A stretch of DNA of 64,000 nt from Candidatus Omnitrophota bacterium (GCA_021108075.1 JAIORP010000206.1:831-64830); one strand, 5' to 3'. Shown: positions 1-34,400, numbered from the stretch's first letter. The notes: generated by a model not told the origin, from the sequence alone. Program-made: numbers and translations.

Positions 1-1400
1 GCCTTACCCTTGAGCAGGCGAACAACACTCAGCACACCTTCGGTTAATTTCAGACGGTCATTGTGCATAAACAGGCGTTGGTATTTTCTTGAATAGCCCG
101 TATGATCCCAGTAATCTTTCGGATACGTTCTTAAGGCGGCTGGAACAGATGTGTGGGTCGCGAAAACCAGACGTGTGCCTTCAAAGTAAGGATTTTCTAA
201 CACGGCCGGTGCGGTTAATGATGTGGCGGCTTCGTTTAAGTGCAAGACATCCGGTTTAATGTTCAAGCCCTTCATCACAGCGGCGGTGCCTTTACCCAAT
301 AACAATTCTTGCAGGAAGCGGTCCCATTCACCGGTTTCGGCATAAATTTCATCGGTAATGATTTCATTCACGTCTTCGATATAAATGACGGTTGCCCGGC
401 CGCCCTGACCAGAATCAAACACCTGGCGCCATGCCTGCACCTGCATCATCATCATGCGGCGGCTTGGGCCGACAGGCATTAAGATGTTAAACATCCGGGC
501 TTCACCTGTCTCGTCATCAACAATCAATTCAATGTTCTCGACATTGTTTTGGTAATCAGCGACATACCGCTCTCTTCGATATTGTCCGTCTTCACCTTTA
601 ACCGGTTTGCGTCCGTGGCGATATTTCAGCGTGAAGAACAGCATGTCCGCGCCTGGCAGGTCAGTCGCGCCGTAAACCGTGTCAGCCGCCAGCTTCCCTA
701 ATCCTCCGGCGAAAACGGAACCGGGGATCGCGATCTCACTGCTGACATAGGTCACGACCTTTCCGGCCATTTGATGAACGACTCTGCTGACCCAGCTGCG
801 GGCTTTAACCGGCATACGTGGTAATACCGCACCGACCTTGACGGTCTTCACTCCGGTCCTTCGGCGTAATTTCAAGTCTTCTACTAAGGCTTTAAAGACC
901 ATTTTAAATTTCTCGTAACTGACTGGTGTTTCTCCTTCAAATCGTGGTTGAATTTGATTAAACCATGATCTTAATTCCTCAACATGCGGGTAAGGTTTCA
1001 AAATCGTATTAACATAAGCGATGAAATCACCAATATGATGTCTGATAGATTCATCCATATCATCCTGCGTCTGATCATAGAAATATTTCAGGCCGGCTGC
1101 CTTGGCGTTCACGCGGTCATATTCATGGCCATCTTGATCAAGCAAGGCAAAACTGAACGGACCAACACTGTCTGTCGTGTAGAGCAAACTGAAAACCTGC
1201 TGGTCGCTTAAACCAGCAGCAAATATTTTCGCCTTTTCTTTACCCTTTCTGACGTCCTCGACCAACTCACTAAGCGACAGTGAATAGTCCCGACCGAACC
1301 GCGTTGCCTGTTGCTGTTGCGCTTCATCCAATGCATCTATCGGTGTCGCCTTAAAGGACGTGCCTGATAAGATGGAAGATTTAAAGGTCACATCGGCTAG
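1..1400 (-). other. GT35 alpha-glucan (glycogen/maltodextrin) phosphorylase-like domain; N-terminal part, continues beyond the window start.
   Basis: Translated at + ~590-725: EIAIPGSVFAGGLGKLAADTVYGATDLPGADMLFFTLKYRHG, the GGLG(R/V)LA(A/G)(C/D) ... DLG(L)P ... YRxGYF signature of GT35 phosphorylases. Translated at + ~135-257: KPDVLHLNEAATSLTAPAVLE and LVFATHTSVPAALRTYP, cf. (I/Q)HLN(E/D)(G/T)H and T(N/T)HT(P/V)(V/L)P(A/E) of the family. Confidence 0.6.
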
Positions 1401-10400: not shown

Positions 10401-13400
10401 CATGATAATTGCCATGTGGCTGATCGCAATTTTAAAAATATCTTGAGGTCTTTCTATGATTGTGTTAAATCCGCTATGCGATTTTTTAACAAGCGATATA
10501 CGGGCTTCAACCCGACATGAAATCTTCACGAACTTCTTAATAAATGTGATCGCCCTTGATTGGATAGTTTCGACCATCTTCACAATAGCAGGATGACGAA
10601 TAATGATATGAACAAATGGCAATCTAATGACATCCTGGAAGGAGGACGTGACACGTATTTTCGTCGCATCTTTCACGCTATGTTCGCGCCAATATTCTTC
10701 AGGAGGATAAAGCACATTGTTCATATCATCAAATAGATATATCTGAACAGCTCTATGTCCATCAACAGGTTCTTCCGCGCGGTCAATCAATCCAATTCTT
10801 CCCTCAAGCAATTCTGTTAGATATGTATTCTTAGAGAATTTGTTGGGACGTGCAATCCTGATGTCTTTTGACTTTGGCCGGCCCATTTCATCTATGTAAG
10901 CGAACTCACTGTGCCATGCGCCATCAGCAACCTTCACATAAACAGCACCTAATTGACCGTTAATTTGTGTTATGCGAGGATCCTCCCCATTTTCAATAAG
11001 AAGTTCAGATAACTTGAATTTAATACCTTCTGTATCCTCTGTGTCACGGACTAAAAGAACGATATCGCTGTTGTGTTCCTTGAAAGGATTATCTTCTCTG
11101 GAAATCCTTCGGGCCATTAAGTTGCCGTTTGGTAATACGGCCGGATTCAGGTACCGATCGTTCTTATCACTATCATCAACATAGATCAATTTTCCTATCG
11201 GATAAGAGTCTTGATGTTTCAAAGCGACGATTCTATTCTTGATCCATTTGAATAACAAGGAAACAACCACAAAACCTATGACACCGAGGACAAGCCAACC
11301 CCCTCCGCTGAAAACTGCTACGCCTGTGACATCAAATCCAAAAATAATATAATCAACAAGTGATCCTCCGAAGACCGTCCAGACAACGAACAGACCGGCA
11401 ACAGCGGATGATCGTAACTCTATCGAGGGGGATTTAGAAGCTTTCTTTTGGACAGGATCTGCTGATTTGTCTGTTAACAGCGGTTGCTGATCAACGTGTT
11501 CTTGAAGCGCCTTCCATGAAATCCATCTACCCAGCCTGGTCAACGCGGCAAAAGACTGCGCGTTCATTGTAAGAAATCGGAACGAGTCATGGAAACCATC
11601 TCGTCCAACACCACCGACAGAGAAAAGAAATCGATTTGGCATGATGACCGCGACGCCTTCTGTATCGAAAAGATCTTCCGGACGATAAACACCGACCGCC
11701 TGAATGCCTTCTTCTAATAGATAGTTGAAGATACTGTGCGCCTGGGAAGGACTAACGTGGCTTCCAGACAATAGCGCGACAGAAATGTTTTCAAATCCTA
11801 ATGTTCTTAATCCTGAGACAATATTAACCACTCCGGACGGCATGCGGGAATCAGCCTTATACATCATGCCAATATGAGATATGCCGGCAAATTCACCCTG
11901 CACAGGATGAACCGCTTGAATAATAACCGCGCCGCAGGTGTAACAGCCTTTGGTGAAAATCTTATAATCCTTATGCTGTGCGGAAACCAAAGACATCCTG
12001 TTCGGAGTGACCGTGATCGAGACAACCGCATCGGCATCAACAGGATTGATCTCCGCTCCTTGTTTGCCCAAATCGACATCGATTCTGAAGTTACCCTGCT
12101 TTTGTCCGGACTTGAATAATGCCACTGGATCTGTTTGCGCTTTTTTGGCGCTCCAGGTGATTGAAAACGGATCATGTTCTGCACGGACAACATCCTTTGT
12201 TAATTGATATCCGTTCGCTTTCACGAATGCTTGCTCATTTGCGATAAATAATTCAACCTCACCCGCCATGCGGTGATAACCGGATAACATAAGCTTGTTC
12301 ACGCCCGCCATTCCAGCAGTGAATTCAATCGCGTTATAGTTACTGACGTCATACGTACCGGTCCATGTTCCGATATTCACCAAAGCGATCATTTGCGCTC
12401 TACCGGCATTAATCGCGCTGGTGGTTGAGGCGATAAAATCTTCATCGGTCAGGCTGCCGTTAAAGACGCAATAATCCTGTCCTTCAATAAAACCATTTAA
12501 GCGCATATGCCCACGGGCCTTGAGGAGCTCCGACTGATAAAGTTCGATGAGATCAACATGCCCGGCGCCTAATTTGAAGGCCGCTAAGGAAAGGATGCCG
12601 TCACCGGCGCCCAGGTCAACGATATCCATGTCTTTTAGATTATCATTCATCATATGAATGATTAATGCGGTATTAAAAATTGAGTAACCGGTATAAGCAA
12701 TAGCTGAACGGTCGAGGTCGCGTAACAGGATCACATTTTCGCCCAGGGCTGCTTGAAGCGCAGAAGACAATAATTGATAATATCCCGCGTCGATCATAAA
12801 TAAATAACCGATGCGAATCACCATCATTTTCCGGCCGTAAGCGGTGTTCACAAAGCCCTCTTCACGTTGATAATTTAATTGATCGTTATAAACGTAGTTC
12901 GGCTGGGTTGCGAAGGCCTGACCCCAGGTATCAACCATATCCGTTGGAAGCTCTTTCAACATATCAGCGGCCCATTCTTCACTGCGTTGAACGGCTGGAC
13001 CATATGTTTGCTGATATGCGCTTGTTGGCATTAATGTTTCAGCATACGTGTTGAGCGCAAAGGCGAACAAAAGGCTGTATTCAAACGATGGATTCTTCTC
13101 GATCACATCCCGTTCTGGTAAACCAAGGTCGTAATATTTACCCGCTATTCCGTAACCAACTTGACCTTGCTCATAATCGGATTTGAGTTGCTCTAAATGT
13201 TCAGGATGTGTTTGCGCCATCATGTCGAGATGCTCTTTGGCGCGGGCACTTAAAATCTCATCAGCAAAAGCGGTTTCAACCAGTGTGGCCAACATGTGTC
13301 TGGATTTTGGCATGACTTCATAGCTGAAACGTAATACGTAGTTTCCGTATAACTCATGGACAATACCGGCGACATTTCCCTGGGTCGCGTAAACGATCAA

Positions 13401-16400
13401 TGTCTCACCTTCGATATAAGACGCCGCCTTCATTGGTAATTGTGTTGTCACATCTGTCAATGGTGCGTCTAATAACCGAATGATAATTTGCGTGACCGGC
13501 GGGGCTCTGGAATCAAAGGCCTCGCCGTAAATAGATGCGATACTCTGTTGCACATCGCTTAAGGCCTCGCCGCGTAAGATCGCCTTGATGACAGCGATTT
13601 CTTGCTCGGCCAACGGGAAGGCTTTTCGGAATAAACTGTCTTGTGCCTGTGTTCCGAATATTATTTGATCCGCTATTGTTTGTGTCTCCTGACGGTTTAA
13701 TGTGCGACAGTTGGCTGCCTGGAGCATGGCCTTGAGTTGGGATTGATCCAGGCTGGAGCCGATCGGCTTTTGCGTCCGCACATCATCAGATGGCCTGGCA
13801 GGATCCTGACCGTCTCTGGCGTCTTTTGTTGTTTCGCGACGGACAGGTAATGTGATACAGTAAGCGGTCTTCTTATCATTTTCCTGTGTTCCGGACCGCA
13901 CGCTGATGTGACCTTGATGTTGCTCAACAATATTCTTAATGATAGCCATGCGTAAGCCCCTGACCGGGTCATCGGCTGTTTGATATTCAGGATTAAACAG
14001 GGTGGATTCGGATGCATCACCGACCATTCTTGCCCCCTCAGCCGTAATGATCACATTATCCTGATCTTCATTTAATGTCATCTTAATGCCTGTCGCCTGC
14101 AAGCCTAATAAGACGAACAGCTGCAATAGTCCTTTATAAGAACCGAAGAATTGAATGGCTTTACCAGGATGGGCATCAATGTCATCTTCATCATCCCGTT
14201 CATCCTCTTGGTCTCCCCAATATGCCTGATCGTTATCGACATCCGTAAAATACCCGCCGGTCATGGACAGGATGACGCTTGCCTGATGTTCGATCTCCCG
14301 GATATCGACCGCCATCCAGTCATTAAGTTCAGCCGGTAAATAACCGTCCGCGGGGTGGCTCATCTCTAAGATAGATAACAGCGCTCTGATTTTCTTGAAC
14401 ATCACGAACATCGGGCTATCGATGATAAACGCTTCCAACTGATCCATGTTATAACGTATTTTGTAAATAAGATTTAACATGCTGTCATTGTACTGACAAT
14501 AAGCCTGTCGCACTTTAACCGTATCTTCCATATCAATCGGGCTGGTAAAGACACCACTCAAACTTTCAGATGAACCTGTGTCAACAGGAACGTCTGTTTT
14601 TGATTTCTTGAAGCGTTCAAACACCGTTGTCAGGTCGACGATCAAGCTCACAACCCGGGCCTTTTGACTCTCCCGTACCAATTGATTGTAGGTCGAGCGG
14701 TACATCAAGCTCTCGTTACCATAACCGGCGACATCAAGGAATAAGTCCGTCAACGCGGTCCAAATTCTCGCCATCTGATCCAGGGAGATCAATGCCGGGG
14801 CTTTGGATCGACTTAAACGCTCTGTGATTCGAGCGTTAACCTTCGCCATCATTGATTCATATTCGTCCAAGAAATATTCAGCCCAGATAGCCGTGCGTTT
14901 GAAGTGACCATTCCATTTATAGAATTCAAACCAGCGCGGCAACATTTTCAAATGTTCATACTCGCCTTCATCAAGGGCCTGGATGCTTAATTCACCAGAC
15001 CGCTCCATCACCTTCATCCTGTTCCATGCGTCAATGGCTTTTCCGACGACGATCATTGATTCTTGATATTCCCGGGGTTCATCTGTTCGCATCCGATTAA
15101 GATCTGTAATGTTTTCTGTTTTATCCCATAATTCTAAATAAGCTAAGATATCTTCCTCTTTCCCGCTGGCCGGCATATCGATTTCAGCTTCTTTCGCAAT
15201 AAATTTCGCGTAAGGATAAAGGTCTCTATCCGGCCGCCGCTCTGATTTCGCTGTTGTAAGCGATGTCACCTTATTGATAACTGTCAATATGCCGAGCATG
15301 GAAACAAATATTTGCCGGTCAACCGTGCGTTTCCAGCCGATCGTCTCGAGCGCCTCTTGCACATTCCGGTCAAAGGCTTTGGTTGAAATCTGATCTTCGG
15401 CCAACAGTTTTAACGTATCTTTATACTCGATCAATTTCGTGATCACTTCAATTTCCTGCGCATTATGACCTCTTGACGTCATGAGTTTATCAAGGATGCC
15501 ATTTACGCGTTGAACCTGTTTTTCAGAAACAACGTCAATGCCGGCCAATTCAGCCGTGTTTTGATAAAGGACAACACTGCGCATCAGGTTAAGATGTTCC
15601 AGTGACAACAACTGGGCTAATCGATTAACAACCGTCCAACCAGCTTTCTTGTAGTATCCAAAACTCATATCATCCAACAACTGCAATGCCCAAACAATAA
15701 AGTCAGACCGGCGATATTTCAGATTTAACTCTGGGGCTGCTGAATAGTTGACACTTAAAACCTGGTCGTTTAATGGCTGGCAAACACGAGCAGCATCACT
15801 CAAATCATCCAGGTATTGCTGAACTAAACTGGCATAGTTCGAAACAGGCGCCGCCGGTATTGCCGGGGTTCGTTCAAATAACGGCACCATCATTTGAGTT
15901 AATAACCGGGCTAAGGCGGAGAACGACCAGTGTTCAATTCCCAGTTGATAATTGTGTTCAACCATGTCGCTGATGGCCTGCGGATCATTCAATAAATGAA
16001 CAACTTCTGTCGCGGTCTGAACCAGACGCTCACGAACTCTCTGACCGCCTTTCGCGAGTTCTGCCGGACTGATATCACACTCAATACATTCCGGTCCTTT
16101 CGGCATGATGTCCGTGATATAAATCCAGTACTTATAAACGAGGATAGGAACTTTATGATACACCGCTTCCAACCAGGCATTGCCCCAACCTTCCCAGGAG
16201 CTGGTATACAGGACCATGCCGCGGTTACCGATCTTTGCAGCTTCATAGGCCTCGGCCAATGTGAATTCATAACTGTCATCTTCACCGATGATGCCCTTGC
16301 CATCGTTGTGTTCACCCGCGTCCCAGATCTTTAATCCTTTAGCACGATACTTCGCCTTTAAGTCTTCCCAGTATTTCGCATCTTCATCCGAGGCCCCGCC

Positions 16401-19400
16401 GTGGGTGATAACGGCATACGGTTGTTTGCCTTCCTTCTGCATCATCTGCGCGACAATCAATTCAAGCTCAAATGAAAGTTCGAGATATTTTCTGGCGACC
16501 GGGCGGACAGGCCGTAATAACATATAACCTTTGCCTGACCCGATACCCAATTCTTTCTCGATTCGTTTGCGCAACTTCCTGGCCCCATACAGGCTGACCA
16601 TATGTGGTTTGGTCAGATCTTCTGCATTAACGACCTTTTCAAAGAACCGGATCCAGGACTTCGGCATCCAGGTTGTTTCCGGTGCCTGATCAAAATCCAT
16701 CACATTCGGTAAGACCGTTGATTCAACACCATAAAGACGTCGTAATTTTTCATACTGAACGATATTGATAACACCCGTGGCTAACAGCTTATGGTTCAGC
16801 TTAATAAATCGTTCTAAATACTTAATCAAGTCGATCCGCCCGAGTTCTTTAGCGAATTCTCTTTCCATTCGGGAAATGTCATGTTTCCAGTCGATCGTCT
16901 TAATGTTCAGTTCTTCGATCACTTCAACCACAGCCAGGCCGAATGGTATGTTGCGGGCGTAAGCCAGAATGTTTTGTGTGACGATGAAATCGATGTTATT
17001 CGCTAAGATGAAGGCTTTCAGATCGGCCTTGATCTTATCTTTATAGAACTCGATCAGGAGTTTGTCTGTTTCTGAAATTTCTTCATTGTTAAAAACGCGG
17101 TCCATTATGGAGACAAGTTGGTTATTGTCCATGTCACCTTTCACGCGTTTAAAGTGGGCTAACGGGAATGTGTGGACTTGTTCTGCCGTCATACCAACAC
17201 CCGGAGTCGATTCGCCAGAATAATAGAAACTAAACGGATCACGGTCTTTCATGGTCGGGTAAATTTGACGTAAGAGACCGACAAAAATCTTACGAACCTT
17301 GTCATTCTCTAAGGTCACCCCGTCTGTTCCGCTTAAACGGTAAGAAATGTAAAGGATATTTCTCATCTGATGTTGTTTGAATAGTTTTAATAACGCGCTG
17401 TAACCGGTTTCAACACCATCGATCACCTGGCGTAATAACTCAGGGATATGCCCGTTGCGGCTTATTTCCTCGCGGACAGTATCATTTTCATATGGCTGGA
17501 ACTGCATGACAACACCGGAAATGACTTGCGCCATCTTGCGGGACCATTCTAAGAGCGACTCTAATTCTTTAATTCTATAAATCAGATGCGCGCTGTTGCG
17601 AATTTGATCGAATTTTTTTCGATCCCAATCTTCCGCACGCATCAAGTGCGGTAATGTTCGACCATGGATCAATTGAGCCCTTAATTCATACAGTTCACGA
17701 AGACCTTCTTCATATCGTGAACCGTGTCTGTACAGCATTCCCTTCCATTTCTTCAAGTTCGCTTTTTCATTTTTGAATGTTAAGAAGCCGGCAACCGCGT
17801 CAAATTCATTTGGAACCGGTTGGTCACCTAAAATTTCTCTTAAGCGGCTGACAGCGATCTTTGGCTCTTCAAAGATGTTTGTCGTCACACGGATATCAAC
17901 GTATGTCAGGAGTCCCAGTAAGCGGAAGAATCGGTTACGCAATAAGAAATACGCCCTCGCATCTTCATAAGAGGTCAGCATCGCCGCGGCTCTTCTTTCA
18001 TATTGTTGTAAAAATTCAGAGAAACTGATCCTGTTTTCCAGGACATCTCTGGCATACGGCAGCATGACCAGCAAGGCCTGCACGAGCACGATATCAAACG
18101 GCATATACGTAACCGTTGGATTTAAGCGTTGCAAGACCCCTTGAATAACGGGTCGGCTGTTCAATGCTGATAACCGGTCGGACTGATCGTTAAACATGTG
18201 ATACAGGTTAAATGCTGAACGAATGATATATTCACTCTTTGGTAAAATCGTTTTAGCATAAACTTGCATGAACTCAAATCCCTGCTTGCGGCTCGCACCA
18301 TTTCCGTTTCCATTGACGGATTTAAATTTTTCCGCGCCGTTATTAAGCAAGGAAGTAAACAGACCGTTGCCCGCGGCTAATACCTGATAATCGGTATAAA
18401 GCCGGCCTTCCATCAAGGTCGTAATCAGCGTTTTATCCCCATCGTCTGCAACCTGGTCTAATATATCGACGAGCCACACTAAGAATTCATTGTCGATTTC
18501 TAAGCGGGAACCAAAATTGACAAATCGCATACCGCGGATATTCAAGTCTTGAACAACGACAACTTCCGGCTGAATAAATTGATTAACGTACGGCGTGATA
18601 TAATTCTTCAAGACCCTGGTGAGGCGCATGTCGTCTAATGGCTGTTGTGTTTCCCTGTTCGTCAGATGAGCATCAGAGGATAAGAGATCCTTCGCATCAA
18701 AACTCATCCTGGCGTAAGCCATGCGGTTGGATACCGATAAGTCTGTCATCTGTTGACAGTCCCGGGCCATCCCTTTACGTAATGTCTGCCATAAAACTGT
18801 TCGGAATTGTTGTTTAACGGCCTGCCATTGAGCGCTCGAGAGGAATTGTCTGACCAAACGTTGGATGCCCCATACTACCGCAACGATTAGGACGATGGAA
18901 ATGATCCCGGCGACAACCGGGTTATCGGCTAATACTGTCAGATAGGCCATGGCAATCGTTACGGATCCCGCTTCAAATAATGTTGTACCTGTCTCGTCAG
19001 AGCCTTGCGATGCATCCTGTTTCAGAACTTGCCTGACCATTAAATCTGATGTCGCTTTTAATTTTGCTTCACTGTCTCCCATCGTGCTTAAAAAACGGAC
19101 ATCGGTATGTTCACCGGATTGATCTTTTAATGTGTCCGTTAAGTAACCTGACATGACCGACCATACCGCTTTCATCACCTGATCTGTCTGCTCACGTTTT
19201 GCCGTTACCATTACTTTCCAATCAAAGGCTCTGGCAACGTAGACGCCGCCTTTGTCCACATCATAATCGTAGTATGGAGCAAACTCCGCCATTTGACGCA
19301 ATATGTTGCTGCCAGCCATTTCATTCAGGGCAACATCAATTCTGAAGAATTCCTTATTATTTTTATCGATCGCGGCTAAAAATATTTGGATATCCAATTT

Positions 19401-22400
19401 CTCCCGCATGACTTTGGCGAAATCAATCAGGACAAAGAACGGTCTGTAGTGCATATAGAATGTGGCCGGCACCTTAAAGGTGTATGTCAATTGATCAGCA
19501 TCTGTTTGAATAGCAACATTTTCAAAACAAACCGTTTGCCTTACTGCTTGCTCATGCGCGGCATCCTTTGCTGTTGATTGAACGGTTGCTGATGATGGCT
19601 CGCCGGTAGCGATAGGTTTGAATTGTTTAATACGTTCGTCCGGATCATATTTATATAAGGCTTGATGCAAGAAAGAAATGATATTTTGAATTTCCTGATG
19701 AGATGATTCGGCAATGAAATGCGGAAGTTCACTGTCTGTCAAAATAAGTTTGAGAACATCAATGGTGAGTTCCATATCTTCTGTTGACCAGGCGCCTTGA
19801 TTGATCAAGGCAATGCGCAGGGCTGTTCCTTCAACGAAACGCTTCCTCCAAATGGAACCGAACTCTAATTTCTCTTGTGTCACAATATTGTAAATCTCTA
19901 AGACCATACCCATGTTATTCAAGTGCCCGGCAATATTTAATGTGAATAAATCATCGATGGTCTTCGAGAAAGTGTAAGGGATGTTGACCATCCTTTGAAC
20001 GCGGTTAAATGTCCGCGTTTGTTGCGCCAGGAAATCATCCATGCGGGCTTCATTAACATTGTCTGAGACATTAAATATGCTGACAGCGCCGATTTCATGG
20101 ATCAAGCTGGCAGCTATTTGAAGCGGTGTTAAATATTGTCGGTATTCAAGATAATCCGAATGGTTGGAAAGAACGATGTATTCTGTGCCTTCATGGGCGC
20201 AAACGGTTGCCAGAAAACCTTTGAGTGGTCCGGCTCGGACATGTCCGGCGTTGATCATCGCTTCTAAACGGTCAGCCATATTGTTTTTATTGATCGCTCT
20301 TAAGTAAGTCAATGCGAATTCTTTGACGATCTTAACATCAACGATGTCTTTAAGCGCATCAAAGGCAGACCAAACATAACGTTCAACTTCAGCGTCACGT
20401 TGTTGTTTGGTTGGCGCTGAGAGGTCCGGATGTTTGCGGGCAATGTCTACTCTGGTATTGTAATAATACGATAACCAGATCCAGTTCTTATATTGTTGTT
20501 CACGGGAGGCAACCTTTTTACCCGTCTTCCTTAACACGGATCCAAAAGGATTCAATGGGAATATCCAGGAAATGAAGACTTTCAACAGGCCATTAATATC
20601 ACTATCATAATCCCCGGTCACCCATCGACTTCTCGGTTGCTCGGCAGGTCCGGTTGAAAAATCAATAATGTAAATTTTCTTTTCTCTCGTTATAAATAGA
20701 TGTTCTACTTTAACATCACCATGAATAATTCCCAGGTCATGATTCAGGCGTCGATAAGCATCTCCTATTTTCCTGACGAGTTCTTCCTCATTCTCAATAA
20801 AGAATCGAACCCAAGAGCTATTCCCATGCAGTTCAGCCAAGGATATGCTGTCTTCTATTCCCTTCATAATGAGGACATCCGAAAGAATAAGACTTTCAGG
20901 CGCTATGCCTGCCCTCGATGCTCTTAGCGTCAATTGATATTCCAGCTCAGTCGCGTTTCCTGAAGGAGCTGTAAAGTTCTTAAATTTAAAATAAAGAGTC
21001 TTTTCACCACTATCCGTTTTCAGTGTTGCCCTGACAACCCAGCCTGAAAGCGTTGCTTCTTCTCTGACGATTTCCAGTGCTAATGCGGTTATCGATTGAA
21101 CGCCGAGGAAGTCTTTCAATAATGCTTTGTTGATAAAGATGGACCGTATCTTTTCTTTAACGTCATCATGCCAGGATATAGGGGAATCATTAATAGCCTG
21201 CCCGAGTAGAACGCTTTCGGCATCGACGGTTGTTTCTCCCGCCAACCATCGTTGCGTGCGCGCTTCATTCTCTTCATCTGTTAGATTGAACTCGCTGACC
21301 GCGCCGATTTCATGGATCACGCTGGCCGCGATTTGAAGCTCTGTTACGTATTCAGCGTAAGCCGTTGAAATAAGGATGTATTCCGTTCCGTCTTTCTCAT
21401 AGATAGTGGCCAGGAAGCCTGCCAGCGGTCCGGCGCGGACTTGACGCGCGGCTAACATGCCTCTTAACCTGACGGCCATCTCTTCTTCACCCGCAACCCT
21501 CAACGCCGTCTCTAACACAACTTCCATTGAGGCGATATCAACATATTGGTCGATGCTGATAAAGTCCGTATCCCAGTTCAACGCTTCAACAGCGGCATCA
21601 CGCTGTTCTTTGCCCGGTTCAGGAAGATCAGGGTGACGGCGGGCGAGATCTTTTCTGCTATCGTTAACATTGGAATCATCAGGCATCGTATCTTGTCCGG
21701 ATTGATCTTCTCTAATGTTTATTTTTACCCTGATGTCTTTTTCAGCGGACGATTTTAATATAAAGATAGACGTCAATTTCTCGCTAAATTTAATGATGGC
21801 GACAATAATTCTTGGACGCTCTTTAGGGTGAACAACGGGAACAACCTGTTCATGCTGCTTTCTGTCGCGCGCGAATTGCAACTCACTTTCAGGCGCGTAA
21901 AGCATCAGGATGGCATTCATTCCGTCATAGCGTCCTTTTTCTATTTCCCCAAGGCTCCATTGAACCGCGCCATTATGTTCGTGGAACCCTCTAGCTGTTA
22001 CCGGGCTGTATGTCGCGAGGTATGGAATTCTTTCACGTTTTGTTTGTTCGGCTTGAGTGAGGACCAATCCACGGGCCAATCCTCTAACCGGTTTGCCGCC
22101 AACGAGATAATAATCACGTCTTTCTTCAGATATTAACTTGACATTCGGCGCTCCAAGGGCGAAATTAAAGCGTGCGTTTGCCTTTTGATCGACGCTGCCT
22201 TCTAATGTAAAATTATTGGTTAACGCGTGAACGCTGGCAAAGAACCCGGCCGTACCAGTTTGACCGCCGGTAAGCTCTTGCGTTCTAATAATGTTAATAA
22301 TTTCCGGTGTTAAGTACTTCTCCACGCTCCAGATCAAGGCTCCCAGAAACACGCGTTTGGTTTCTTTATCGATAACCTGAGCAACGACGATGCCTTTTGC

Positions 22401-25400
22401 GTTATGTTGAATAGCACTTCTTAACTGATCAACCGTCACTGTCTCTTGCGGGGTTGTTATCCAGGCATCATTGTGAACGGCTGTTAATTCTTCAGCCTCT
22501 TGTGTGACGGCCCAACGGTATAGAACATACGCATCATCACGTTCATCAACCTTGAAGAAAATTAACTGATCGGCAGGGATAAACCATTTGTAACCAAAGT
22601 GTCTGCGGACAAAACGTCTTAAATTGGAAGGAATAACGTTACGCGGGATGCAAAGTTTTGGCATTGGCGTTCCGACCCTGAGATGTTCGACACGTCTCGC
22701 GTTGTATTGTTCAATGACCTGGTCCCACGTTCCTCTAATGATATAGCGACGAGACAGGAGATAACCGCCAATGCCGATGACAATGGCGCCGACGATCGCA
22801 CCGGCCATCGTCCAGACAAGGCTGCTGATTTCTATGACTGCGCCTGACTGCGCAATAGCGTTGACGTCTTGAGCCTGTGCAACATTCGTGATACCGAACA
22901 AGACCGCGCCTATGCCAAGCATTGCAAATAATACGGATACCAGTGTGAATCCACCTTGAGCATTCTCTGGACAGGATCCTGGTGTTTTAAAAGTTGTGTC
23001 TTCTTCGTCAAATCCCTTTCTGGATATGCTTAAAAATTTGAAGCCTTTGATTGTATCTTCAACCTCACCCTTGGCTGTGACTATTTGGCTGTCAAGCGAT
23101 GTATCGCGTGCAGCCCGTGTTTGGACGCTTGAGAGGAACTCTCTTTCGCGTTCGGCATTCGTCTCATCCGTTAGATTGAACTCGCTGACCGCGCCGATTT
23201 CATGGATCAAGCTGGCCGCGATTTGAAGCTCTGTTACGTATTCAGCGTAAGCCGTTGAGATAAGGATGTATTCCGTTCCGTCTTTCTCATAGACAGTGGC
23301 CAGGAAGCCTGCCAGCGGTCCGGCGCGGACTTGACGCGCGGCTAACATGCCTCTTAACCTGACGGCCATCTCTTCTTCACCCGCAACCCTCAACGCCGTC
23401 TCTAACACAACTTCCATTGAGGCGATATCAACATATTGGTCGATGCTGATAAAGTCCGTATCCCAGTTCAACGCTTCAACAGCGGCATCACGCTGTTCTT
23501 TGCCCGGTTCAGGAAGATCAGGGTGACGGCGGGCGAGATCATCTTTATCTATCAGCTTAAAGAAATTCAGAATGGAGGTTAACGATCGCGTTAAGAACAC
23601 AAATGGTTTTCCGCTCCTGGCCTCTTCTTCGGAGATATCACCGATCACAAACGGAATATTTTCTAATAACTGTGAAGCGATTGTTTGATATTGCGCGGCC
23701 ACTTCTCTTTCTTCCCTGCCGTTCATGGCTTGTTCTAATAATACGATTTTCATGTCAACGCCCATTTCAAAAATAATCTTGAGAAGGACTTCGTAGATGC
23801 CGGCTAAGCAGTCATAACTCATGCCGCCTGTAATTATTACTGTGTTCATGCCTTTCGCCAACAGGTGCTTCACTTCCTCGCGCAGCATGTTCTCTTCCGC
23901 TTCCATCGCCTGCTGCTTAACACGGATGATCAGGTCGGCCTCTTCAGCGGTATATCCCTGCGTCTCAAAAATCTCCGGCGTCATCGTAAGTTTCTTCCAG
24001 AAATACTTATTAAACTTTTTCTCATAGAATAGATATCCATATTTTTCCAGTTTTACCAGCAAGGCACCTGACAAGACGCCTGGTGCTGTTGGACCATAAC
24101 CATATGAAACGCCCAATTTAATTTGTCGGCATGGAATATCCCGTGATCTTAACAGTTCTAACAATTCTTCCTCGGCATTAAAAGACTCGAAGTCATGATC
24201 TTTAACCGTCAGGATCGCCACCTTGGGCCGGTCAGAGGAAGCGGCCGCATCTTCCCGGGCCGGTGTCGTTCCTGTCGAGCGGCGGCGGGCGATACTGTCT
24301 TCGAAACGGTCTAACATAAAGGAACGGATATCGGCTAATCTTTCAAGCACGGTGACTTCAGCCTGGCGGAATTTCATCAATGGATGGTCCTCAACATATT
24401 TTGTCCGGACATCAAACCGGTCACTTCCCCAAATAGCTTTTACTGGCAAGACAATATGGAGGTCAGCATTATTTTCAAAAATATAATAAACAATAACCTG
24501 ATATAACGACAGGAGACAATCATCGCAAACACCGCCGGTTAATATAATTGTCTTTATTCCGTCCTCGACGATCTGGTCAAGTATCGTTCTGACCTGTCGC
24601 GCTTCTTCTTCCAACGCGGCTGTTCTTATTCTTAAGACGAACTCAGCCTCTTCTTTTGTATAACCCCTGACAAGCAACCATTTCTCGGTTAAGTCAAACT
24701 TGCTCCAGTAGTAATGGTTCAACTTATTCTCGTAGCCTAACAGGTCGTCATTATCTAAACGTTCAGCTAATTCTTTCGGGATGGCATCAACGGATGTTTT
24801 ACCAAATCCGAATGAATCAGCAACCTCAATATGCTCATAAGAAACGCCTTCTTCTTTTAAGAGGTTAAATATCCTTGATTCAAAAACAATCGCTTTACGG
24901 TCATAATCGGTAACACTCAAAACGGCCACGTCTTTTTCACCAAATTGCGTCGCTGTGTCAGGAGAGCAGAACCAGCCGGATTCCTGCAATTTCTCCGCTT
25001 GATTAAGATAAGACGCTGTCACCATCGAAGATGTCGCGATGTATAAGGCGCGGATCAATTCCTGGGCCGGGTTAGAACCGCTGAATTCACCAAGATCGCG
25101 GCTGTTGATAGTCAGGCGAACGTCACCCTGCGTTGGAATGTCATAAGTTGCCTTGTTATGATCCCACGGGATATAACTCAAGTTCGGCGGATATCTTAAG
25201 ACATCGGCAGGATAGACGACCGTCGGAACATTTTCTTCTTTAATGCCTGAAATGTACGCGTCGGATAAGAAATAAGCGACTTGCCGGGCGACAGAAGCGA
25301 TATTGAGATCAAGCGGGCATGTCAGATCCACACGTCCGACATAAACTTGCTGGCTTAACTCAAAAATCAGCTTCAATCCTTTTTGCAGGAATGTGTCATC

Positions 25401-28400
25401 CAGTTGATTTTCTTTAATAAAATCCAATTGATTAACTCTTTGGGCATAGGTCGCCAGGATGATAATGTGCGAGACCAGAATGTCGCCTAAGAAGGCCGAA
25501 CTGATATAATTATAAACTTGAGCAACATCGTTATTGGTCATGCGCAACAATTGGCCGATACGTGAATCAAAAATTTGACGGCGGTCTTTACGTAAAATCA
25601 ATTCATCGATAAAGTAAACCTTGGCTAAGTCGGCCATACCCGTCAGGCGCATGTTTGGATAAAGGCTGGCCGCGGTCACGTCGCGGATAGTCCCTGTTGA
25701 AGGTCTGTTAACGCGGCGAGGATCAACTTCCACCATCCAATCCCAGGCGCGCTCATCTCTCATTTCATGGAAGAGTTCAATCATTTCCGTATCAAACAGG
25801 CCGTGTTGTGCCATAACCAGGCGGTCATTGATATTGACCTGCAGGGCCTTCAGGAATGTCTCCCGCTTCAAGCTCGGATCATTTAAATAGGTGTAATAAG
25901 GATTCCATGCGGTATCGAATGCTCCGATTTCTTCCGTGGCTTGCTTCAGGTCAACTTCATACATCATAAAGATATAATATCCATCAATGAGTTTAACGGT
26001 TAAGTCCCCTTTTTGTGTCTTTAATGATTCCATGACCTCGACCATCGATGGCGGCATGCCCTCCCGGGATATCTTACCGAGTTTGATGCGTCCGGTTGGA
26101 TAATAACCCTGCAAGGCCCATTCTTGTGATGTTTTCTTGGCCTTGATGTATTGCATCATATTAAATTCATCCGCTAAGTCGCTAAAGGATTCATTCTCTT
26201 TGTTTATTTTAGCCATATAAATTTTATCTTCCGACCGGAATTCCAACGTGCGTCCATAGGCCTTTTTCTCAAAGGACGCGACCATCACAACCTGATCACT
26301 TTCTTGCTCCACGAGGACAGATTCGTCATACCTGTTTCTTACCATAATATATCCCGGGATTTGATCAATATCCGCGTCTGTCCATTCTTCTTTCTTCGGC
26401 AAGTCCGATGGCTTATGGACAATGACCGCCGGGACCTGTTTAAATAAATCATGCATGATGTCCTGGTAGTTATGAGAAGCTTGTCCGTCCCGGTAAATCT
26501 CAAATATCTTTAGGATCAATGACTTAACGCCCTGACGGTATTCGGAAATAACGGTCTTAATCTTTGCCGCAATCCCGTCAGTCACGTCTCCGACGAATGA
26601 CAACGCTTTTGACTTCATGGAAACAAATGACGCTTCGATAATATCCTGTCGGGTCCTGGCATGATAAAGCAGGATATGGTCAATGGTCTCTACCATAAAT
26701 TGTAATAAGGCTTCGTATGCTTCCATATTGTTCTCTTCATATTTGCGAACCAGCTCATCCAGGCCATAGACATGCAGGTTAATACCGACACCGGAAATGT
26801 CTTCATATAGCCGTATAATCATTCTGTCATCACCCTTTGATTGAGATGTGACGCGGAATGTCGTGTCTTCGAGGCCATCACGCATGAGTTCTGCTGAATG
26901 GCTGAACAGCTGTGTCAACTGATACCAGCGCTGGTCATCGAATAAATGATGCTTGCTGCCTTCTAAAATAAATTTCTTAATCGATCCGACGCTTAACGGA
27001 TAGTCAAAATAACGGCCGGAGTTATAAGCCTTTACAGACTCTTCGGGAATAATATTTTCTTCGGTGTCGAATTCATTAATTTTTTCCTGTCGTCCGGTAT
27101 AACGCGCGTGTAACTCAATCTGACCCGCGCTTATAATGATGAGGTTCAACTGGCTGAAACCGTTTAAGACGTGAATATGTCCTAACACAGTCGGTGTTAA
27201 GACTTCAAGAGGAATGGTCATGCGGTATCTGAAAATGAACGACCGTAAACTTTCGAGGTAGGCCGCTCTGCTCGCCTTCAATGTTTCCGTGTCTGGCAGA
27301 TTGGCTTGTTCATTGAGTGAATGATAATTGCTCTTTAAGCTTCTCACATTCATTAACATTTCGGCATCGACTTTCAGAGAGCTGGTGACGATATAATCCG
27401 CGACCTTTTCTAACGTCGAAATATTTTTCACTTCCGAAACGATTTCCTGGACTTGAATGTCAGAAGCACGGTACATCTCAACAATCATTCTGATCAGATC
27501 GGTGTTCAATCCGCGGGCCTGATAATCCGCTGATATCTCTGTTTGATGGATTTGAAGACGAATACCCTGCGCTAAAGTAACAACAGAAACTCGCTTAAAG
27601 CCGACGTCCTGCCCTATATCCATTCTGTATATTTTCGGCTCATCTTCCTGGCTCACGTTTAAGACGTATTCATTGCCGTCCTTATCTGTTACGTGTTGAC
27701 CGGTCAGATTTAACAAAATTTCTTCTTCGTAAGAGAGCTTGAATTTGTTTTCGATCTCATGTAATAACGGCAATTCATATTGTCGAAAAATTTGTTCTTC
27801 AAGGTCATACAATGCCTTGACTTCAAATCGGACACGCATGCGCTTAAATTGTTCAGCGAAGGAGCGCGGGTTGCCAAACCTCGCTTGTTGATAATATTCT
27901 TCAGCGCTGACGTCAACGTTCATATCAGCGCGCCAATCTTCTAATCCTGCGTCGATATTATTTAAGTCAACCGGAATGCTTGTATGAACCCAGTTATCCG
28001 TGATTTCCAAATTCTCTTTAACAGACATGCTTGATAACGCCTTCTCTCCCATGACCAAACCATTAATAATGGAACGGAAAACAACCGATCCCCGCGCGAT
28101 CTTCGCGGCAGCTAACGTGCTGTCAATGATAACCGCGCCTTCAATGTCATTCTTTCCATAGATCGTGGTGTTAATAATCGTGCTGTTGCGGATTGAACCG
28201 TCTTGCGGAACATCAGAATTAACCAGACGGTTGCCAAATTGATCCGGCTGAACATCTTCGATATAAGCGAGTATACGGGCGAATTCCCCTTCATTGCTAT
28301 CTTCATTAACAAGATAATACGTATCACGCGCTTTGGTCAATTGACCAATTTCACCCCAGAACAATTCATGACCAAAATCAATAACTTTGATATTCATTGG

Positions 28401-31400
28401 ATGACCCCGTACAATTTCTATGCGGCGTTTAAGTTCCTGAACGTGTTCATAGAAGCGTGGATAGTCGGCTAAGAATTTACGCAATTTCTCATCGCGTTCA
28501 ATCTCTTCTTGCCATTGTGTTTTGTCATGCGTCATGGCCTCAAAGAGATAGCCATCGACATCAATCATGCCTGGAAGGTCACCAAAAATCTCTTCCGCAA
28601 TATCGAGGAACAGATACGAGAAGGCCGGATTACCGATATGGACCAACGACTTAACCTCTTGCCCTTTATCTTCAATACCAAAGCGGCGTAATAACTCCGA
28701 TCGGCTGCGCCGGCGGACTTGCATTCTCAAGTCTCCGGTCGCATCGTCGCGGAACAACCATTCTTTGTTTTCGGCAAGGTCATCCGTAACCGTGACAAGG
28801 CTTCCGAAACGGACAGCATCTGTTTCGCTTAAGTCCATGTCTAGTTCCGATAAAAGATTAGACGCAATTTGAACTTCGTCACCCCACTTCCAGGCTAAAC
28901 CGCGGAATCCCATGCGTCTTAAATGGTAAGCGACCAGATGCCACACATACGGTGAAGCGGTTGCGCCGGATAACCAGCGTCGATCTTTACCTGTTCGCAT
29001 TAAGATCTTCAAGAACGGTTTGATTCCAAAGACGCGTTGGGTTAACGGACTCATACGGGTTCCGGAACCTGGCAACATCGCGCCAACCGACACGCTGTTA
29101 CGGTCAAAGTCACCGTAACGTTGTTTCCAGTCGCGGTAGGCATCCAATAATCCGAGGAATTGTCCGCGTCGTCCGACTTCCGGATAAGCCATGATGCGAA
29201 CGCGTTCGTCTGCGCGCAGTAAACTTTTTGTCTTGATCGCGAAGTCTTCTTCAACACTGACTTCGTCCCCGCCGCTGGTGATCGCGATCAGCTCATGAAC
29301 ACCTAGTGATTCCTTAACAATCATGCGTAATTCTTTTATGTTGGCGATCAGATTTCTCAAGGCCTTGCGTGTTGTTCCTCTAGGCCCTTGACCATCTGAG
29401 GCCTTTGCTTCTTCGTCTTCAGGTAACGCGATCGGTCTGCGGCTAACCTTGGCCATTTCTATTGCGATCACGCTGTCGGTAATTGGTAATACGCCTGATT
29501 GAACCAGATAAGATTGAAGTTTAGCGGTTCTGCTGGCGATCATACCGATCACGTTCAATAGACGGTAAAGGGCATAAACGAATAAATTGATAAAACCACG
29601 TTTATCTGACGCCATCTCTGGCTTGTACAGCAGGATATAACCCATCATTTCGTAGAAGGTCCACGTATTTCCGAATGAGGTGACCGCGTTATGTTTAACC
29701 GGCATAACGTAGACACCGAATGGCGAAAAGATCACGGTATGGGCGATGTCTTGTTCTTGTAAGGCTTTGATATACGAGGAAACTTGTTCCGCTAAGGCTT
29801 CAAGGTCATCGCGGGTTGAAAAATAATATCCTTGAGCCGGCCAATCGCGGAGCATTGAGATACGAACACTACCGCGTGTTTCTATCAACTCTTTATGTGC
29901 CCGTTCTAATGGTGATTTATCTTCTGGCAAATACATCCCGTGCAAGTGCAAGTCATGAATGGAAGCACCGGCAGCCAAACTGTTAAATGTGAGTCTGAAC
30001 CGGCCCGTTGTGTTTTGGGCCACCCAGCGAATGGCTCGTATGATATCTTGCGGCCGCAATACTTGATCCACAACATTTTCAAATCCGTCCATAAGAAGAA
30101 GGAAGTGACGTAAGGCATACGGATATTTTTGTTCCAGCAGATCAACCTTTTCGCTATCAATCTCACCGCGGTAGAAAAATTCTTTTTCATCCTGAATAAC
30201 AGCCGGATAGGTTGGGTCACCTTCTCTTCTCGGTTGCGTGACGCTTTCATAGGACCGTGCCGGCATTGGCCGTTTGGTTCTCCATGGAGTCAAGACGCGT
30301 TTAAATCGTCCCGCTCTTGACATCGACGGCACGCGTGTCGGCGGCAGAAGTTCTTCAATCATTTTCTCCAAGGTCCCCATGCCAACGGTTACGATCTTTC
30401 TTAACGCGACCTTAATACCGTATTCATCCCGGCTGACTTCAACCTTAACGTTCTCTAATACATTCAGGCCTTTACTTGTTTCTTCGACTAATCCATCAAG
30501 TTCTTGAGCCTTGAATGTTTCGTCACTATTATTTGTAATATAAACTTTTCCGCGAACTTCCGCCCGGCTCAGGTCGATTGAACCTTTAGATGTCACATCG
30601 GAATATAGTTTCGATGATGATTCTGAGGCGGCCCGTGTGGTCACGCGGGAGGCATCCGTTTCCGGAGCGAAGTTTCCGGACGGTGTTTTTACATCGACAC
30701 GGCTTTCTTTTTCATCATTCATTATCGGCCGTGTCTTTTGTGACATTTTCAGCCCGGCACTGCTGATCTTAGCCCTTACCGCCTTAAAAATGTTCCGCAA
30801 GGCTTGCATTCCGGAAGCCTGCACGGCAAAGATAGACTTAATCTTCGCGTCCATTTCAAAGTAGGTTGCGACTGTGCGTCTGTCCGCTTCAGCATGAGAA
30901 CCGGTTGTCAGCTCGCTGACTTCGTGGAAGGCGATGACTTCATAAGCGCCTTTGCGTTCTTGTTCTGTCCGGAAGGTTCGATTAAATCTCTGATAAACTT
31001 TCTTGGATGAGAAGTAGATCACAAGGGTCTGACGGCCTTCAATGGTTTCAAGTCTGGCCCAGATAAATCCTTCCGGCGGGGCATGCGCTACAGGCGTGTT
31101 GAAGTATTTGACTTGAACGGGGATGTTTGTTCCACGATGATTAATATCGTTATATCGCGTTACAAATTCAACGCGCAGGGCATTATCCGCTAATGCATTC
31201 AACCCAGACTCAAGCGTTTTTCCGATATTACCCATGTAACCGACAGCCTCAGGAGAAGCAATCTCCGTTCGGCCGTCAACCGTGTAAGCCTTGACGATCT
31301 CATAGAATTCTTTCAACGCTTCAATGTCTCCGGTCTGACTGGCTGTCGTGGTGATACTTACAAATCGGTCCCAATCTTCCGAGTTATTTAGGGCAATGAC

Positions 31401-34400
31401 GTCTAAATATGTTTCGCGGATAAATTCTTTTGTGTCCCGATCATACAACAATACGCCCATCGTCGCGACCTGGATATACTTATCCAAACCAGTCGCCGCC
31501 TGCAACCGGTCCGGTGTCGTGAGAATGACCTCCGCATCAGCAGGCGTAATATAACTTTCGTGATCCTCAACATTGTCCACTAACTCCCGCAAGAATTTAT
31601 TGTTGTCTATTTCTTCCTGTGTCCGTCTCGCGTGTGGGTGGGTTAAACCGATTAATGTTCCGTCATCCACTTTGTTGAGCTTGACGATGCGCGCAAACTC
31701 GCCATTGAAGATTGATGCTGAATGATCTGTTCCAACCTGGCCAATTTCCAACGGCACATTGTAACGGACAACAACATCTAAATGATTAGCCGTGTTTTCT
31801 TGTTGTAAAATTCTGTCGACCAATGGAATGCTGTCATCCTGGAACTTCACGCGTTCGCTTTCCGGTAAATACTCGATCAAGTCTTTTTGCAGGATCAGCT
31901 GGGATTCCGGAATAAAATTGTAGGTTAAATTGTTCATGCCCGCATCCGCTTCTGAAATCTTGGATATGACTTGAACGCCGACTTCACGCGTGTCTTCTCT
32001 GGCTGCCAGGTAAACATTTGTTCGGTGATACGCGCTATGAACCATATCATCCAATAAAACCTTACGGACACGGTCGTTCCAGCTTTTACCGGCAGGATCG
32101 ACTTGACCAATACCGGCTGATTCTCTAATTCCAAGAACTTTTGGAACTGCGACTTTATTAAAATGGGTTGGGTTATCGCCGTACAGAATACCTAAAGCCT
32201 CTACCATCAGCGATGTGCCTTGAATAAAATCGGTGAAACGTTGTCTGGCTTCGGTCACAGGATAAGTATCACTGTTTTCACGTTCAACTTTGAGACTTTC
32301 GTTTAATTGCTGAATGGCCCTGAGATGGGCTTCTCCATTCTTGAAGATGGATTTGATTCTAGCGTCCCGTTTTGGAAAAGCTTGTCGCGTGCGTTGATCA
32401 GCTTCTTCGTGACGGCCTGTATTCATCTCGATGGTTTCATGAAATACGATTGCTTCTAAAGCTGATTTTTGTTTTTCTTCTGTCTTAAACGTTCTTAAGA
32501 ATTTCTTGTACAGGGCTTTTGATGAGAAATAAATCGTTACTGCGTGTTGGTTACCGTCTGATTCAAATTCCGCCCAAATAAAGCCTTCCGGCGGAGCTTT
32601 ATCAAAACTTGTCTTGAAGTATTTAACTCGAACCGGTCTATTCGCATCAACGAAAAATGAAATGATGTTGGAATATTCTTTTACGAGTTTAACGCTGCCT
32701 GGATCTTTTGCTGTAGATTTAAGTTTGCTTTCAAGGTCCTGTGGAATATTACCCATGTAACCGACAGCCTCAGGAGAAGCAATCTCCGTTCGGCCGTCAA
32801 CCGTGTAAGCCTTGACGATCTCATAGAATTCTTTCAACGCTTCAATGTCTCCGGTCTGACTGGCTGTCGTGGTGATACTTACAAATCGGTCCCAATCTTC
32901 CGAGTTATTTAGGGCAATGACGTCTAAATATGTTTCGCGGATAAATTCTTTTGTGTCCCGATCATACAACAATACGCCCATCGTCGCGACCTGGATATAC
33001 TTATCCAAACCAGTCGCCGCCTGCAACCGGTCCGGTGTCGTGAGAATGACCTCCGCATCAGCAGGCGTAATATAACTTTCGTGATCCTCAACATTGTCCA
33101 CTAACTCCCGCAAGAATTTATTGTTGTCTATTTCTTCCTGTGTCCGTCTCGCGTGTGGGTGGGTTAAACCGATTAATGTTCCGTCATCCACTTTGTTGAG
33201 CTTGACGATGCGCGCAAACTCGCCATTGAAGATTGATGCTGAATGATCTGTTCCAACCTGGCCAATTTCCAACGGCACATTGTAACGGACAACAACATCT
33301 AAATGATTAGCCGTGTTTTCTTGTTGTAAAATTCTGTCGACCAATGGAATGCTGTCATCCTGGAACTTCACGCGTTCGCTTTCCGGTAAATACTCGATCA
33401 AGTCTTTTTGCAGGATCAGCTGGGATTCCGGAATAAAATTGTAGGTTAAATTGTTCATGCCCGCATCCGCTTCTGAAATCTTGGATATGACTTGAACGCC
33501 GACTTCACGCGTGTCTTCTCTGGCTGCCAGGTAAACATTTGTTCGGTGATACGCGCTATGAACCATATCATCCAATAAAACCTTACGGACACGGTCGTTC
33601 CAGCTTTTACCGGCAGGATCGACTTGACCAATACCGGCTGATTCTCTAATTCCAAGAACTTTTGGAACTGCGACTTTATTAAAATGGGTTGGGTTATCGC
33701 CGTACAGAATACCTAAAGCCTCTACCATCAGCGATGTGCCTTGAATAAAATCGGTGAAACGTTGTCTGGCTTCGGTCACAGGATAAGTATCACTGTTTTC
33801 ACGTTCAACTTTGAGACTTTCGTTTAATTGCTGAATGGCCCTGAGATGGGCTTCTCCATTCTTGAAGATGGATTTGATTCTAGCGTCCCGTTTTGGAAAA
33901 GCTTGTCGCGTGCGTTGATCAGCTTCTTCGTGACGGCCTGTATTCATTTCAATAATTTCATGGAAGGCAATAACTTCATAGGCATCTTTTTGCTTTTGAT
34001 CTGTTCTAAATGTTTTTAAAAACTTCTTGTACAGGGCTTTTGATGAAAAATAAATAACGAATGGTTTTTGGTCATTAATGGATTCAATCCGTGCCCAAAT
34101 GAAACCTTCCGGTGGAGCTCGGCTTAATGTTTTTGTGAAATATTTAACTCTAATCGGAGAGTCGATTAAGAATGGAATGGTCTCCGTAATTTCTCTAACT
34201 TGTTTGACATTGCGTGCATCATTCGCATACTCGCGTATCTCTTCGACTGTCGATTGGCCAATATTACCCATATATCCCACCTTAATCGTATCATCAGATC
34301 TTCTGTCTCTTGTTGTGTCTTTCGCCTTCTTCACCGCAGCTTTGACGGAAGACAATCTTTTTTCCGGCAATGATATGGACATTTCAATTTTTGTGCCTTG

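Follow-up and report, generated by a model that had tools for sequence, protein, structure and literature searches.

A previously unassigned domain family with a predicted zincin-like fold recurs at enzyme-unit borders in giant proteins of Omnitrophota

The window analyzed here is a stretch of 64,000 nucleotides (nt) from a Candidatus Omnitrophota bacterium (GCA_021108075.1, JAIORP010000206.1:831-64830), and all of it is part of one giant gene. A single minus-strand frame (3..63998) runs through the window with zero stops over 21,332 codons and is open at both window ends; each of the remaining five frames contains 938-1696 stops, and the longest open stretch among them is 194 amino acids (aa). 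The encoded protein, with its many enzyme domains and multiple predicted membrane passes, is at least 21,332 aa long. Our subject is a module that occurs three times in this protein, in copies designated B, A and C in their order along the chain. The three copies represent one previously unassigned domain family of ~146 aa, whose members alternate with small enzymes across the family. Unless stated otherwise, all features described below are encoded on the minus strand.

The original prediction, made from the DNA alone, had proposed one recurrent module in three copies. The minus-strand translation bears this out, as the signature VRAGPL.GFLAT, EGTEYI, LQIAAS.IHEIGAVS.FN appears in it three times, and a hidden Markov model (HMM) built from the three copies matches only these three places in the 21,332-aa frame (E 1e-86 to 1e-97). 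The repeat unit thus stands, with its proposed length of ~135 aa revised to ~146 aa for the full module once its conserved N-terminal segment and final helix are counted. Copy B occupies 23109..23546 (aa 13485-13630; ARRHPDL at 23514-23534, HEIGA at 23190-23204), copy A 21219..21656 (aa 14115-14260; ARRHPDL at 21624-21644, HEIGA at 21300-21314) and copy C 20004..20450 (aa 14517-14665; ARKHPDL at 20421-20441, HEIGA at 20085-20099). Copy C is diverged, as had been described, and extends further than the span of 20050-20330 first assigned to it. Between B and A lies a pair of transmembrane-like helices (22764..22946; aa 13685-13703 and 13727-13745 by Kyte-Doolittle), which, if its predicted topology is that of a hairpin, would put both flanks on one side of the membrane. 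From there to module A runs a region of ~365 aa (21657..22751) with no Pfam match better than E 0.07. Copies A and C bracket a small protein-kinase-like domain of the Kdo/RIO/Bud32 type (20499..21131). This arrangement had also been proposed, and it is supported by the Pfam scores of the intervening segment, since aa 14261-14516 alone passes the gathering thresholds for Kdo (31.5 bits, cut-off 21.3) and RIO1 (27.3 bits, cut-off 22).

Comparison of the copies points to events of different age. Copies A and C share 55% of their amino acids and 61% of their nucleotides, with synonymous sites near saturation; because the third codon positions of shared residues agree in only 50% of cases, the duplication that separates A and C is old. 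Copies A and B share a near-identical tract (21279..21650 on the A side, 23169..23540 on the B side) in which 368 of 372 nt agree and the longest exact run is 246 nt. The near-identity of ~99% noted earlier is thus present in the assembled sequence, with four differences in place of the reported three or so; two of these are synonymous and two conservative (V/I, L/V). Both a repeat finder and direct comparison give the A-B offset as 1890 nt, the multiple of three first reported, as expected from A and B sharing one reading frame. The tract edge toward the protein N-terminus is sharp, with the preceding 40 codons only 25% identical at the nucleotide level, and at the other edge the next 20 codons are 45% identical before identity drops to background. 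The tract ends short of the last helix of the module, which is diverged between A and B. Copy B is followed by the membrane hairpin and the ~365-aa region, copy A by the kinase. The suggestion that the module had co-duplicated with its neighborhood is accordingly rejected, as A and B have unrelated flanks. A tract that stops before the last helix, set between unrelated flanks, argues for gene conversion rather than block duplication. We explain the A/B identity most readily by gene conversion within the gene, recent and spanning ~372 nt, superimposed on an older duplication.

Such events recur, as seen from a second repeat in the same gene. This repeat consists of 1,202 nt that are perfectly identical, in frame and 1,521 nt apart (32746-33947 and 31225-32426, so that aa 10018-10418 equal aa 10525-10925), and it sits within a unit of ~507 aa present in ~3 copies (aa ~9907-11077), with flanks that are 40-77% identical in amino acids. 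The repeat unit has no Pfam assignment. Module pairs in another giant gene are also up to 88% identical in nucleotides. Alternatively, both the A/B identity and the 1,202-nt repeat could be artefacts of assembly or polishing, with reads of one paralogous copy overwriting the other. Sharp-edged blocks of identity within otherwise diverged paralogues can also be generated by mis-mapped reads during consensus polishing, and no second assembly of the giant gene is found among the contigs searched. However, simple overwriting would leave none of the four scattered differences inside the tract, the frame is intact over 64 kb, and raised identity between paralogous modules is found in independent metagenome-assembled genomes (MAGs) too. 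We thus regard an artefact as very unlikely.

The original prediction recognized no known family in the module, and we likewise find no match to the module family in Pfam, NCBIfam, PHROGs or PDB sequences. A word-indexed protein search returned no matches for the segment that runs from A through the kinase to C, and 2 matches only for the family profile. An exhaustive profile search over 1.84 billion representative proteins identified 68 relatives at E <= 1e-3, 35 of them at E <= 1e-10. Ten relatives were looked up; five carry an organism name, and all five of these are partial proteins of Omnitrophota MAGs. We further identified 38 module loci in GTDB genomes, most of them labelled Omnitrophota. 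In 34 of the 38 the matching frame is open over all the DNA fetched, which is to say that the modules lie in giant genes. Giant multi-enzyme proteins of Omnitrophota are themselves known already, as 'Archaeovorin'-type proteins or a 'multi-enzyme metabolic cluster' (West-Roberts et al., 2023, bioRxiv 10.1101/2023.11.21.568195; bioRxiv 10.64898/2026.06.07.730766). What is new is the module family, which is absent from every domain library tried.

The alternation of modules with enzymes is seen most fully on contig JADFXH010000005.1 from an Omnitrophota MAG (loci L010, L015, L019 and L036). There, ~10 modules per 6.7 thousand aa, spaced 376-1088 aa apart, alternate with NUDIX, HEAT, guanylate kinase, P-loop NTPase and 2H-phosphodiesterase domains, and two of the modules share 88% DNA identity. 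Fragments from elsewhere in the family show the same alternation, there with PMM/HAD, PRK, CMP kinase, DUF218, PGM, methyltransferase and NUDIX+GT5 domains. A hybrid histidine kinase, MshEN-T2SSE-REC ATPases, a REC protein and a PPDK protein carry the module at their N-terminus, and it is also found on its own in proteins of ~150 aa.

Two side observations concern these shorter members. At three loci (L042 8665-10456, L001 3060-4968 and L002 8159-12634) a same-strand array with gaps of a few nucleotides presents the same order of genes, namely a large coiled-coil protein (>1,000-3,000 aa), a protein of 443-566 aa starting with MVR(Y/F), and a gene for a stand-alone or N-terminal module. The array neighbors of the module genes at these three loci offer no Pfam clue. 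Separately, contig JAXMFU010000004.1 (719 kb, labelled Candidatus Competibacteraceae) encodes at L023 9809-11584 a 591-aa protein with an N-terminal module that includes DPARPLPG. This protein is related to the module+PPDK protein P0027 and to P0034. The family may therefore reach past Omnitrophota, or the bin may be mislabelled.

Conservation was counted over 129 distinct members, with positions given in copy A numbering. The C-terminal part of the module conserves His115 (91%), Glu116 (95%), Gly118 (94%), Ala119 (90%, 116/129), Asn130 (96%) and Arg133 (84%), and position 127 is His in 69%, Asp in 14% and Glu in 4% of members (H/D/E in 87%), so that the second helix of what we describe below as the zincin-like part carries an (H/D)-x-x-N-x-x-R pattern. 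Further conserved positions are Arg74 (90%), Gly76-Pro77 (95%), Ser97 (89%) and Ser112 (94%). The HEIG element had been judged not to be an HExxH site, and the family upholds this judgement. The window copies read HEIGA, position 119 is never His, and the second zinc-binding His is absent in 129 of 129 members; the module is therefore not a canonical zinc protease.

Where the domain is preceded by other sequence, it starts with a conserved segment of the form (K/R)-D-x-x-R-x-L-P-G-x-P-M-P. Written to accommodate the window form, D-L-A-R-R-H-P-D, the pattern is (K/R)-D-x-x-R-x-(L/H)-P-(G/D). Asp3, Arg6 and Pro9 are ~98% conserved where the segment exists. His115 is kept in 98 of the 101 members with the segment and in 19 of the 28 members without it (Fisher p 5e-5, kinship ignored). 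The polar constellation is under strong constraint and seems linked to the N-terminal segment. We considered whether the conserved Met of the segment serves as an internal translation start. This idea is rejected, as a Shine-Dalgarno-like tetramer is present within the 18 nt before ATG in only 4 of 32 instances and the codons leading up to the Met usually read CCC GGC CAG CCG ATG, and it is also opposed by some N-terminal members that retain the whole segment. The segment consensus R-P-L-P-G-Q-P (for example at L016 1959 and L030 3279) resembles the class I SH3-ligand pattern R-x-x-P-x-x-P, a likeness that we mention as a curiosity only.

A structural model provides a context for these residues. 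AlphaFold2 run with a 62-sequence family alignment predicts the module with a mean predicted local distance difference test score (pLDDT) of 94.2 and a predicted template-modelling score (pTM) of 0.89; run on the three window copies alone it gives a pLDDT of 52. From N- to C-terminus, the model shows an extended stretch followed by four helices and then a three-stranded sheet (VRAG / FLATIYEK / TEYILIS). A helix whose last residues are IHEI comes next, and after G-A there is a final helix that begins with D/H-E-E-N. The N-terminal segment is probably packed on the domain, given its pLDDT of 84-94. In a fold search of the PDB the top seven matches are all selecase, with a probability of up to 0.93 and a template-modelling (TM) score of 0.53 over ~100 columns, and the BlaR1 protease domain, DPP III, PprI, SPRTN and a putative Zn peptidase are also among the matches; a viral structure library returned IrrE, SprT-like, WLM and metalloprotease entries. 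All of these fold matches are weak (E >= 0.06). We infer that the C-terminal two thirds of the module resemble a minimal zincin of the minigluzincin/IrrE/SprT-like kind, and in the model the HEIGA helix appears to sit where minimal zincins carry HExxH.

One sequence-level match points elsewhere. The family profile matches residues 136-182 of B. subtilis RNase PH (1oyp) in the PDB sequences with E 1.4e-4 over 46 positions, which cover a helix and the GP..GFLA hairpin (family alignment positions 60-105). If this reflected true kinship, the module would belong with the RNase PH fold, or have some other non-zincin fold, and its likeness to zincins would be coincidental. However, the match is local and limited to a single chain, no other RNase PH chain is matched, and RNase PH does not appear among the top 50 fold matches, while minimal zincins recur in two libraries. 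We therefore judge the relationship incidental and a non-zincin fold highly improbable.

The module is a recurrent, conserved and well-folding domain that lies at the borders of enzyme units and at the N-terminus of regulators. It combines a predicted protease-like fold with a His-Glu pocket and a border peptide that are both conserved. The reading that we tentatively favor, with somewhat less than even confidence, is that a zincin-like domain has been repurposed as a junction, where it would bind the linker upstream of it and might act in docking or regulation, with the A/B identity arising from gene conversion. A repurposed pseudo-zincin is more likely than an active protease. The polar pocket would comprise His115, Glu116, His/Asp127, Asn130, Arg133, Ser112 and Arg74, and would work together with the module's own conserved N-terminal segment, which directly follows the preceding enzyme unit. 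The module could in this way hold, position or regulate the linker between cassettes, and separate module-bearing regulators might dock through the junction module. A regulatory or substrate-binding unit, as the original prediction suggested, may likewise be what the module is.

The same pocket can also be read as an active site. In that case the module would act as a non-canonical metallo- or His/Glu-hydrolase, cleaving the giant polypeptide in cis at or near its own N-terminal segment and so freeing the cassettes, with His115 and His/Asp127 as candidate metal ligands, Glu116 as a putative general base and Asp3 perhaps as a latency 'switch'. This agrees with the zincin-like fold matches, with the strong conservation of Glu116, His115 and an H/D/E residue at position 127, and with the placement of D-x-x-R-x-L-P-G-x-P-M-P right after the preceding enzyme, at gaps of 13-46 aa in several cases. 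His115 and position 127 decay preferentially in members with nothing upstream to cut, and several natural proteins begin at the segment Met. Minimal zincins such as Wss1 self-cleave, with switch-type latency (PMC4559962). Moreover, cleavage of the giants is an explicit open question: they are mostly unannotated, and the authors who described them leave open whether they act whole or cleaved, with no cleavage points known (10.1101/2023.11.21.568195; 10.64898/2026.06.07.730766). Against this, the second His of HExxH is missing throughout the family, the predicted helix stops right after HEI, unlike the active-site helices of zincins, many N-terminal members keep an intact HEIGA without any upstream polypeptide, and some N-terminal members retain the segment ~10 residues from their start. 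We consider such a hydrolase rather unlikely. A more complete version, in which a self-processing hydrolase of zincin-derived fold with an H-E...(H/D) site cuts the giants at its own border and the degenerate stand-alone and regulator copies are its non-catalytic partners, is unlikely in our estimate. If it were true, the Omnitrophota 'giant proteins' would amount to bacterial polyproteins, taken apart to yield enzyme cassettes.

The occurrence of the module at the N-terminus of the hybrid histidine kinase, the MshEN-T2SSE-REC ATPases and the REC protein raises another alternative, that of a small-molecule sensor (of a nucleotide, sugar phosphate or second messenger) regulating an adjacent domain much as CBS, ACT or GAF domains do. 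Its neighbors in giant proteins are mostly users of nucleotides or sugar phosphates (kinases, NUDIX, 2H phosphodiesterase, PPDK, PGM/PMM and GT5), and a conserved polar pocket would suit a ligand. Yet fold, Pfam and NCBIfam searches reveal no similarity to known ligand-binding domains, the fold matches that do emerge are peptidases, and a sensor would leave the conserved N-terminal peptide segment unexplained. A sensor role is, in our view, quite unlikely.

Several points weigh against the repurposed junction domain that we favor. The strong conservation of the His-Glu pair fits an active enzyme at least equally well. The association between the segment and His115 is uncorrected for phylogeny. 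Only three modules are present within 21,332 aa, and the module is therefore no general junction in this particular gene. The GT4 domain of the giant frame has a best database relative that is only 37% identical. Finally, the assembled sequence alone does not tell gene conversion from an artefact of assembly or polishing.

The giant protein as a whole has an ordinary, globular composition. Approximately 30 distinct transmembrane-like hydrophobic 19-mers (Kyte-Doolittle, 19-residue window, mean >= 1.8) are found in the 21,332 aa. Besides the Kdo/RIO kinase, Pfam identifies an APH-type kinase (aa 4071-4275), an alpha-amylase catalytic domain (aa 7573-7833), two GT4/GT1 glycosyltransferases, of which one lies at aa 8343-8727 and the other follows a TreT-like N-domain (TreT-N; aa 9341-9739), and a partial GT5 starch synthase (aa 21201-21303). 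This set recalls what is presumably trehalose, maltose or alpha-glucan metabolism. No NUDIX, SecA-DEAD, C39 or S8 domain was found by Pfam in the 21,332-aa stretch, in which the gene is cut at both ends, and no close orthologue of the giant gene is present among the genome contigs or metagenome contigs searched. Diverged internal duplications of segments without family assignment also occur: aa 13014-13197 and 13250-13433 are 32% identical in amino acids and lie just before module B, and two further pairs are formed by aa 19520-19653 and 20724-20857 (48%) and by aa 7332-7494 and 8186-8349 (29%). On the plus strand, open reading frames (ORFs) of 155-194 aa (34078-34551, 38920-39504 and 41539-42006) run antisense to the giant frame and are probably spurious.

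The kinase-like domain between A and C can be compared with the Kdo/WaaP, RIO and Bud32/TP53RK kinases. Its HGDVKVEH...IIDFSTG aligns to HRDLKPEN...ISDFGLS of CaMKI, which places the catalytic loop HGDVKVEH at 20700-20723 and the DFG equivalent IIDFSTG at 20649-20669. The residues whose retention had been in question are thus partly accounted for. In common with these kinases, the domain retains both the catalytic Asp (HGD) and the Asp of DFG type (IIDFS), and the VAIK Lys has a candidate counterpart, identified by eye only, as the beta3 Lys in YFKFK (20979-20993). A candidate alphaC glutamate in ELEYQ is likewise assigned by eye only, as the CaMKI alignment did not reach the N-lobe. The domain also has a hinge region, 'aGI.P....D...MkgIed', that by eye is like that of Bud32/RIO. 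Unlike these kinases, it carries His (VKVEH) in place of the metal-binding loop Asn, has no recognizable glycine-rich loop, and forms part of a giant protein in which a module flanks it on either side.

The module itself is closest in outline to the minigluzincins and other minimal zincins, such as selecase, proabylysin/projannalysin, WLM/Wss1, SprT/SPRTN and IrrE/ImmA. It is like them in size, with a core of ~100 residues, and in the predicted order of its elements, which run from helices through a three-stranded sheet to a helix with H-E near its end and a polar second helix. It differs in having HEIGA in place of HExxH, on a helix predicted to end at Ile, and in having an extra N-terminal helical part of ~70 residues together with the conserved proline-rich N-terminal segment. 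Profile searches of PDB sequences and Pfam detected no sequence-level relation between the module and minimal zincins. Two further systems may offer analogies, without homology to the module. In megasynthases, pseudo-enzyme scaffolds such as the pseudo-methyltransferase and pseudo-ketoreductase of animal fatty acid synthase reuse an enzyme-derived fold between catalytic domains. In protease-punctuated viral polyproteins, an embedded protease cuts at its own borders.

The window as a whole is best compared with the Omnitrophota giants, which reach up to 85,804 aa (10.1101/2023.11.21.568195) and 147,155 aa (10.64898/2026.06.07.730766). It holds a single ORF of >10,000 aa with many transmembrane segments and tiled enzyme domains. 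It shares with the giants a frame that stays open for tens of kb, abundant transmembrane segments, large unannotated stretches, and a string of enzymes of the glycosyltransferase, glycoside hydrolase, kinase and NUDIX type, although NUDIX is missing here. Both preprints use Pfam for annotation and do not resolve the 'dark matter', and a term search finds no mention of the module, of a zincin-like domain or of a linker in either of them (10.1101/2023.11.21.568195; 10.64898/2026.06.07.730766). The module family offers a landmark for parsing giant proteins into cassettes and bears directly on the stated question of whether they are cleaved. It also offers a defined candidate site that can be mutated in work on processing or docking, and its border peptide is a motif that can be sought as neo-N-termini in existing metaproteomes. 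The giants also provide a reference for the internal repeats. Their repeats are reported to be mostly old and diverged (10.64898/2026.06.07.730766), whereas the window contains two near-perfect in-frame repeats, which would make in-frame gene conversion or duplication a presently active process in at least one giant gene.

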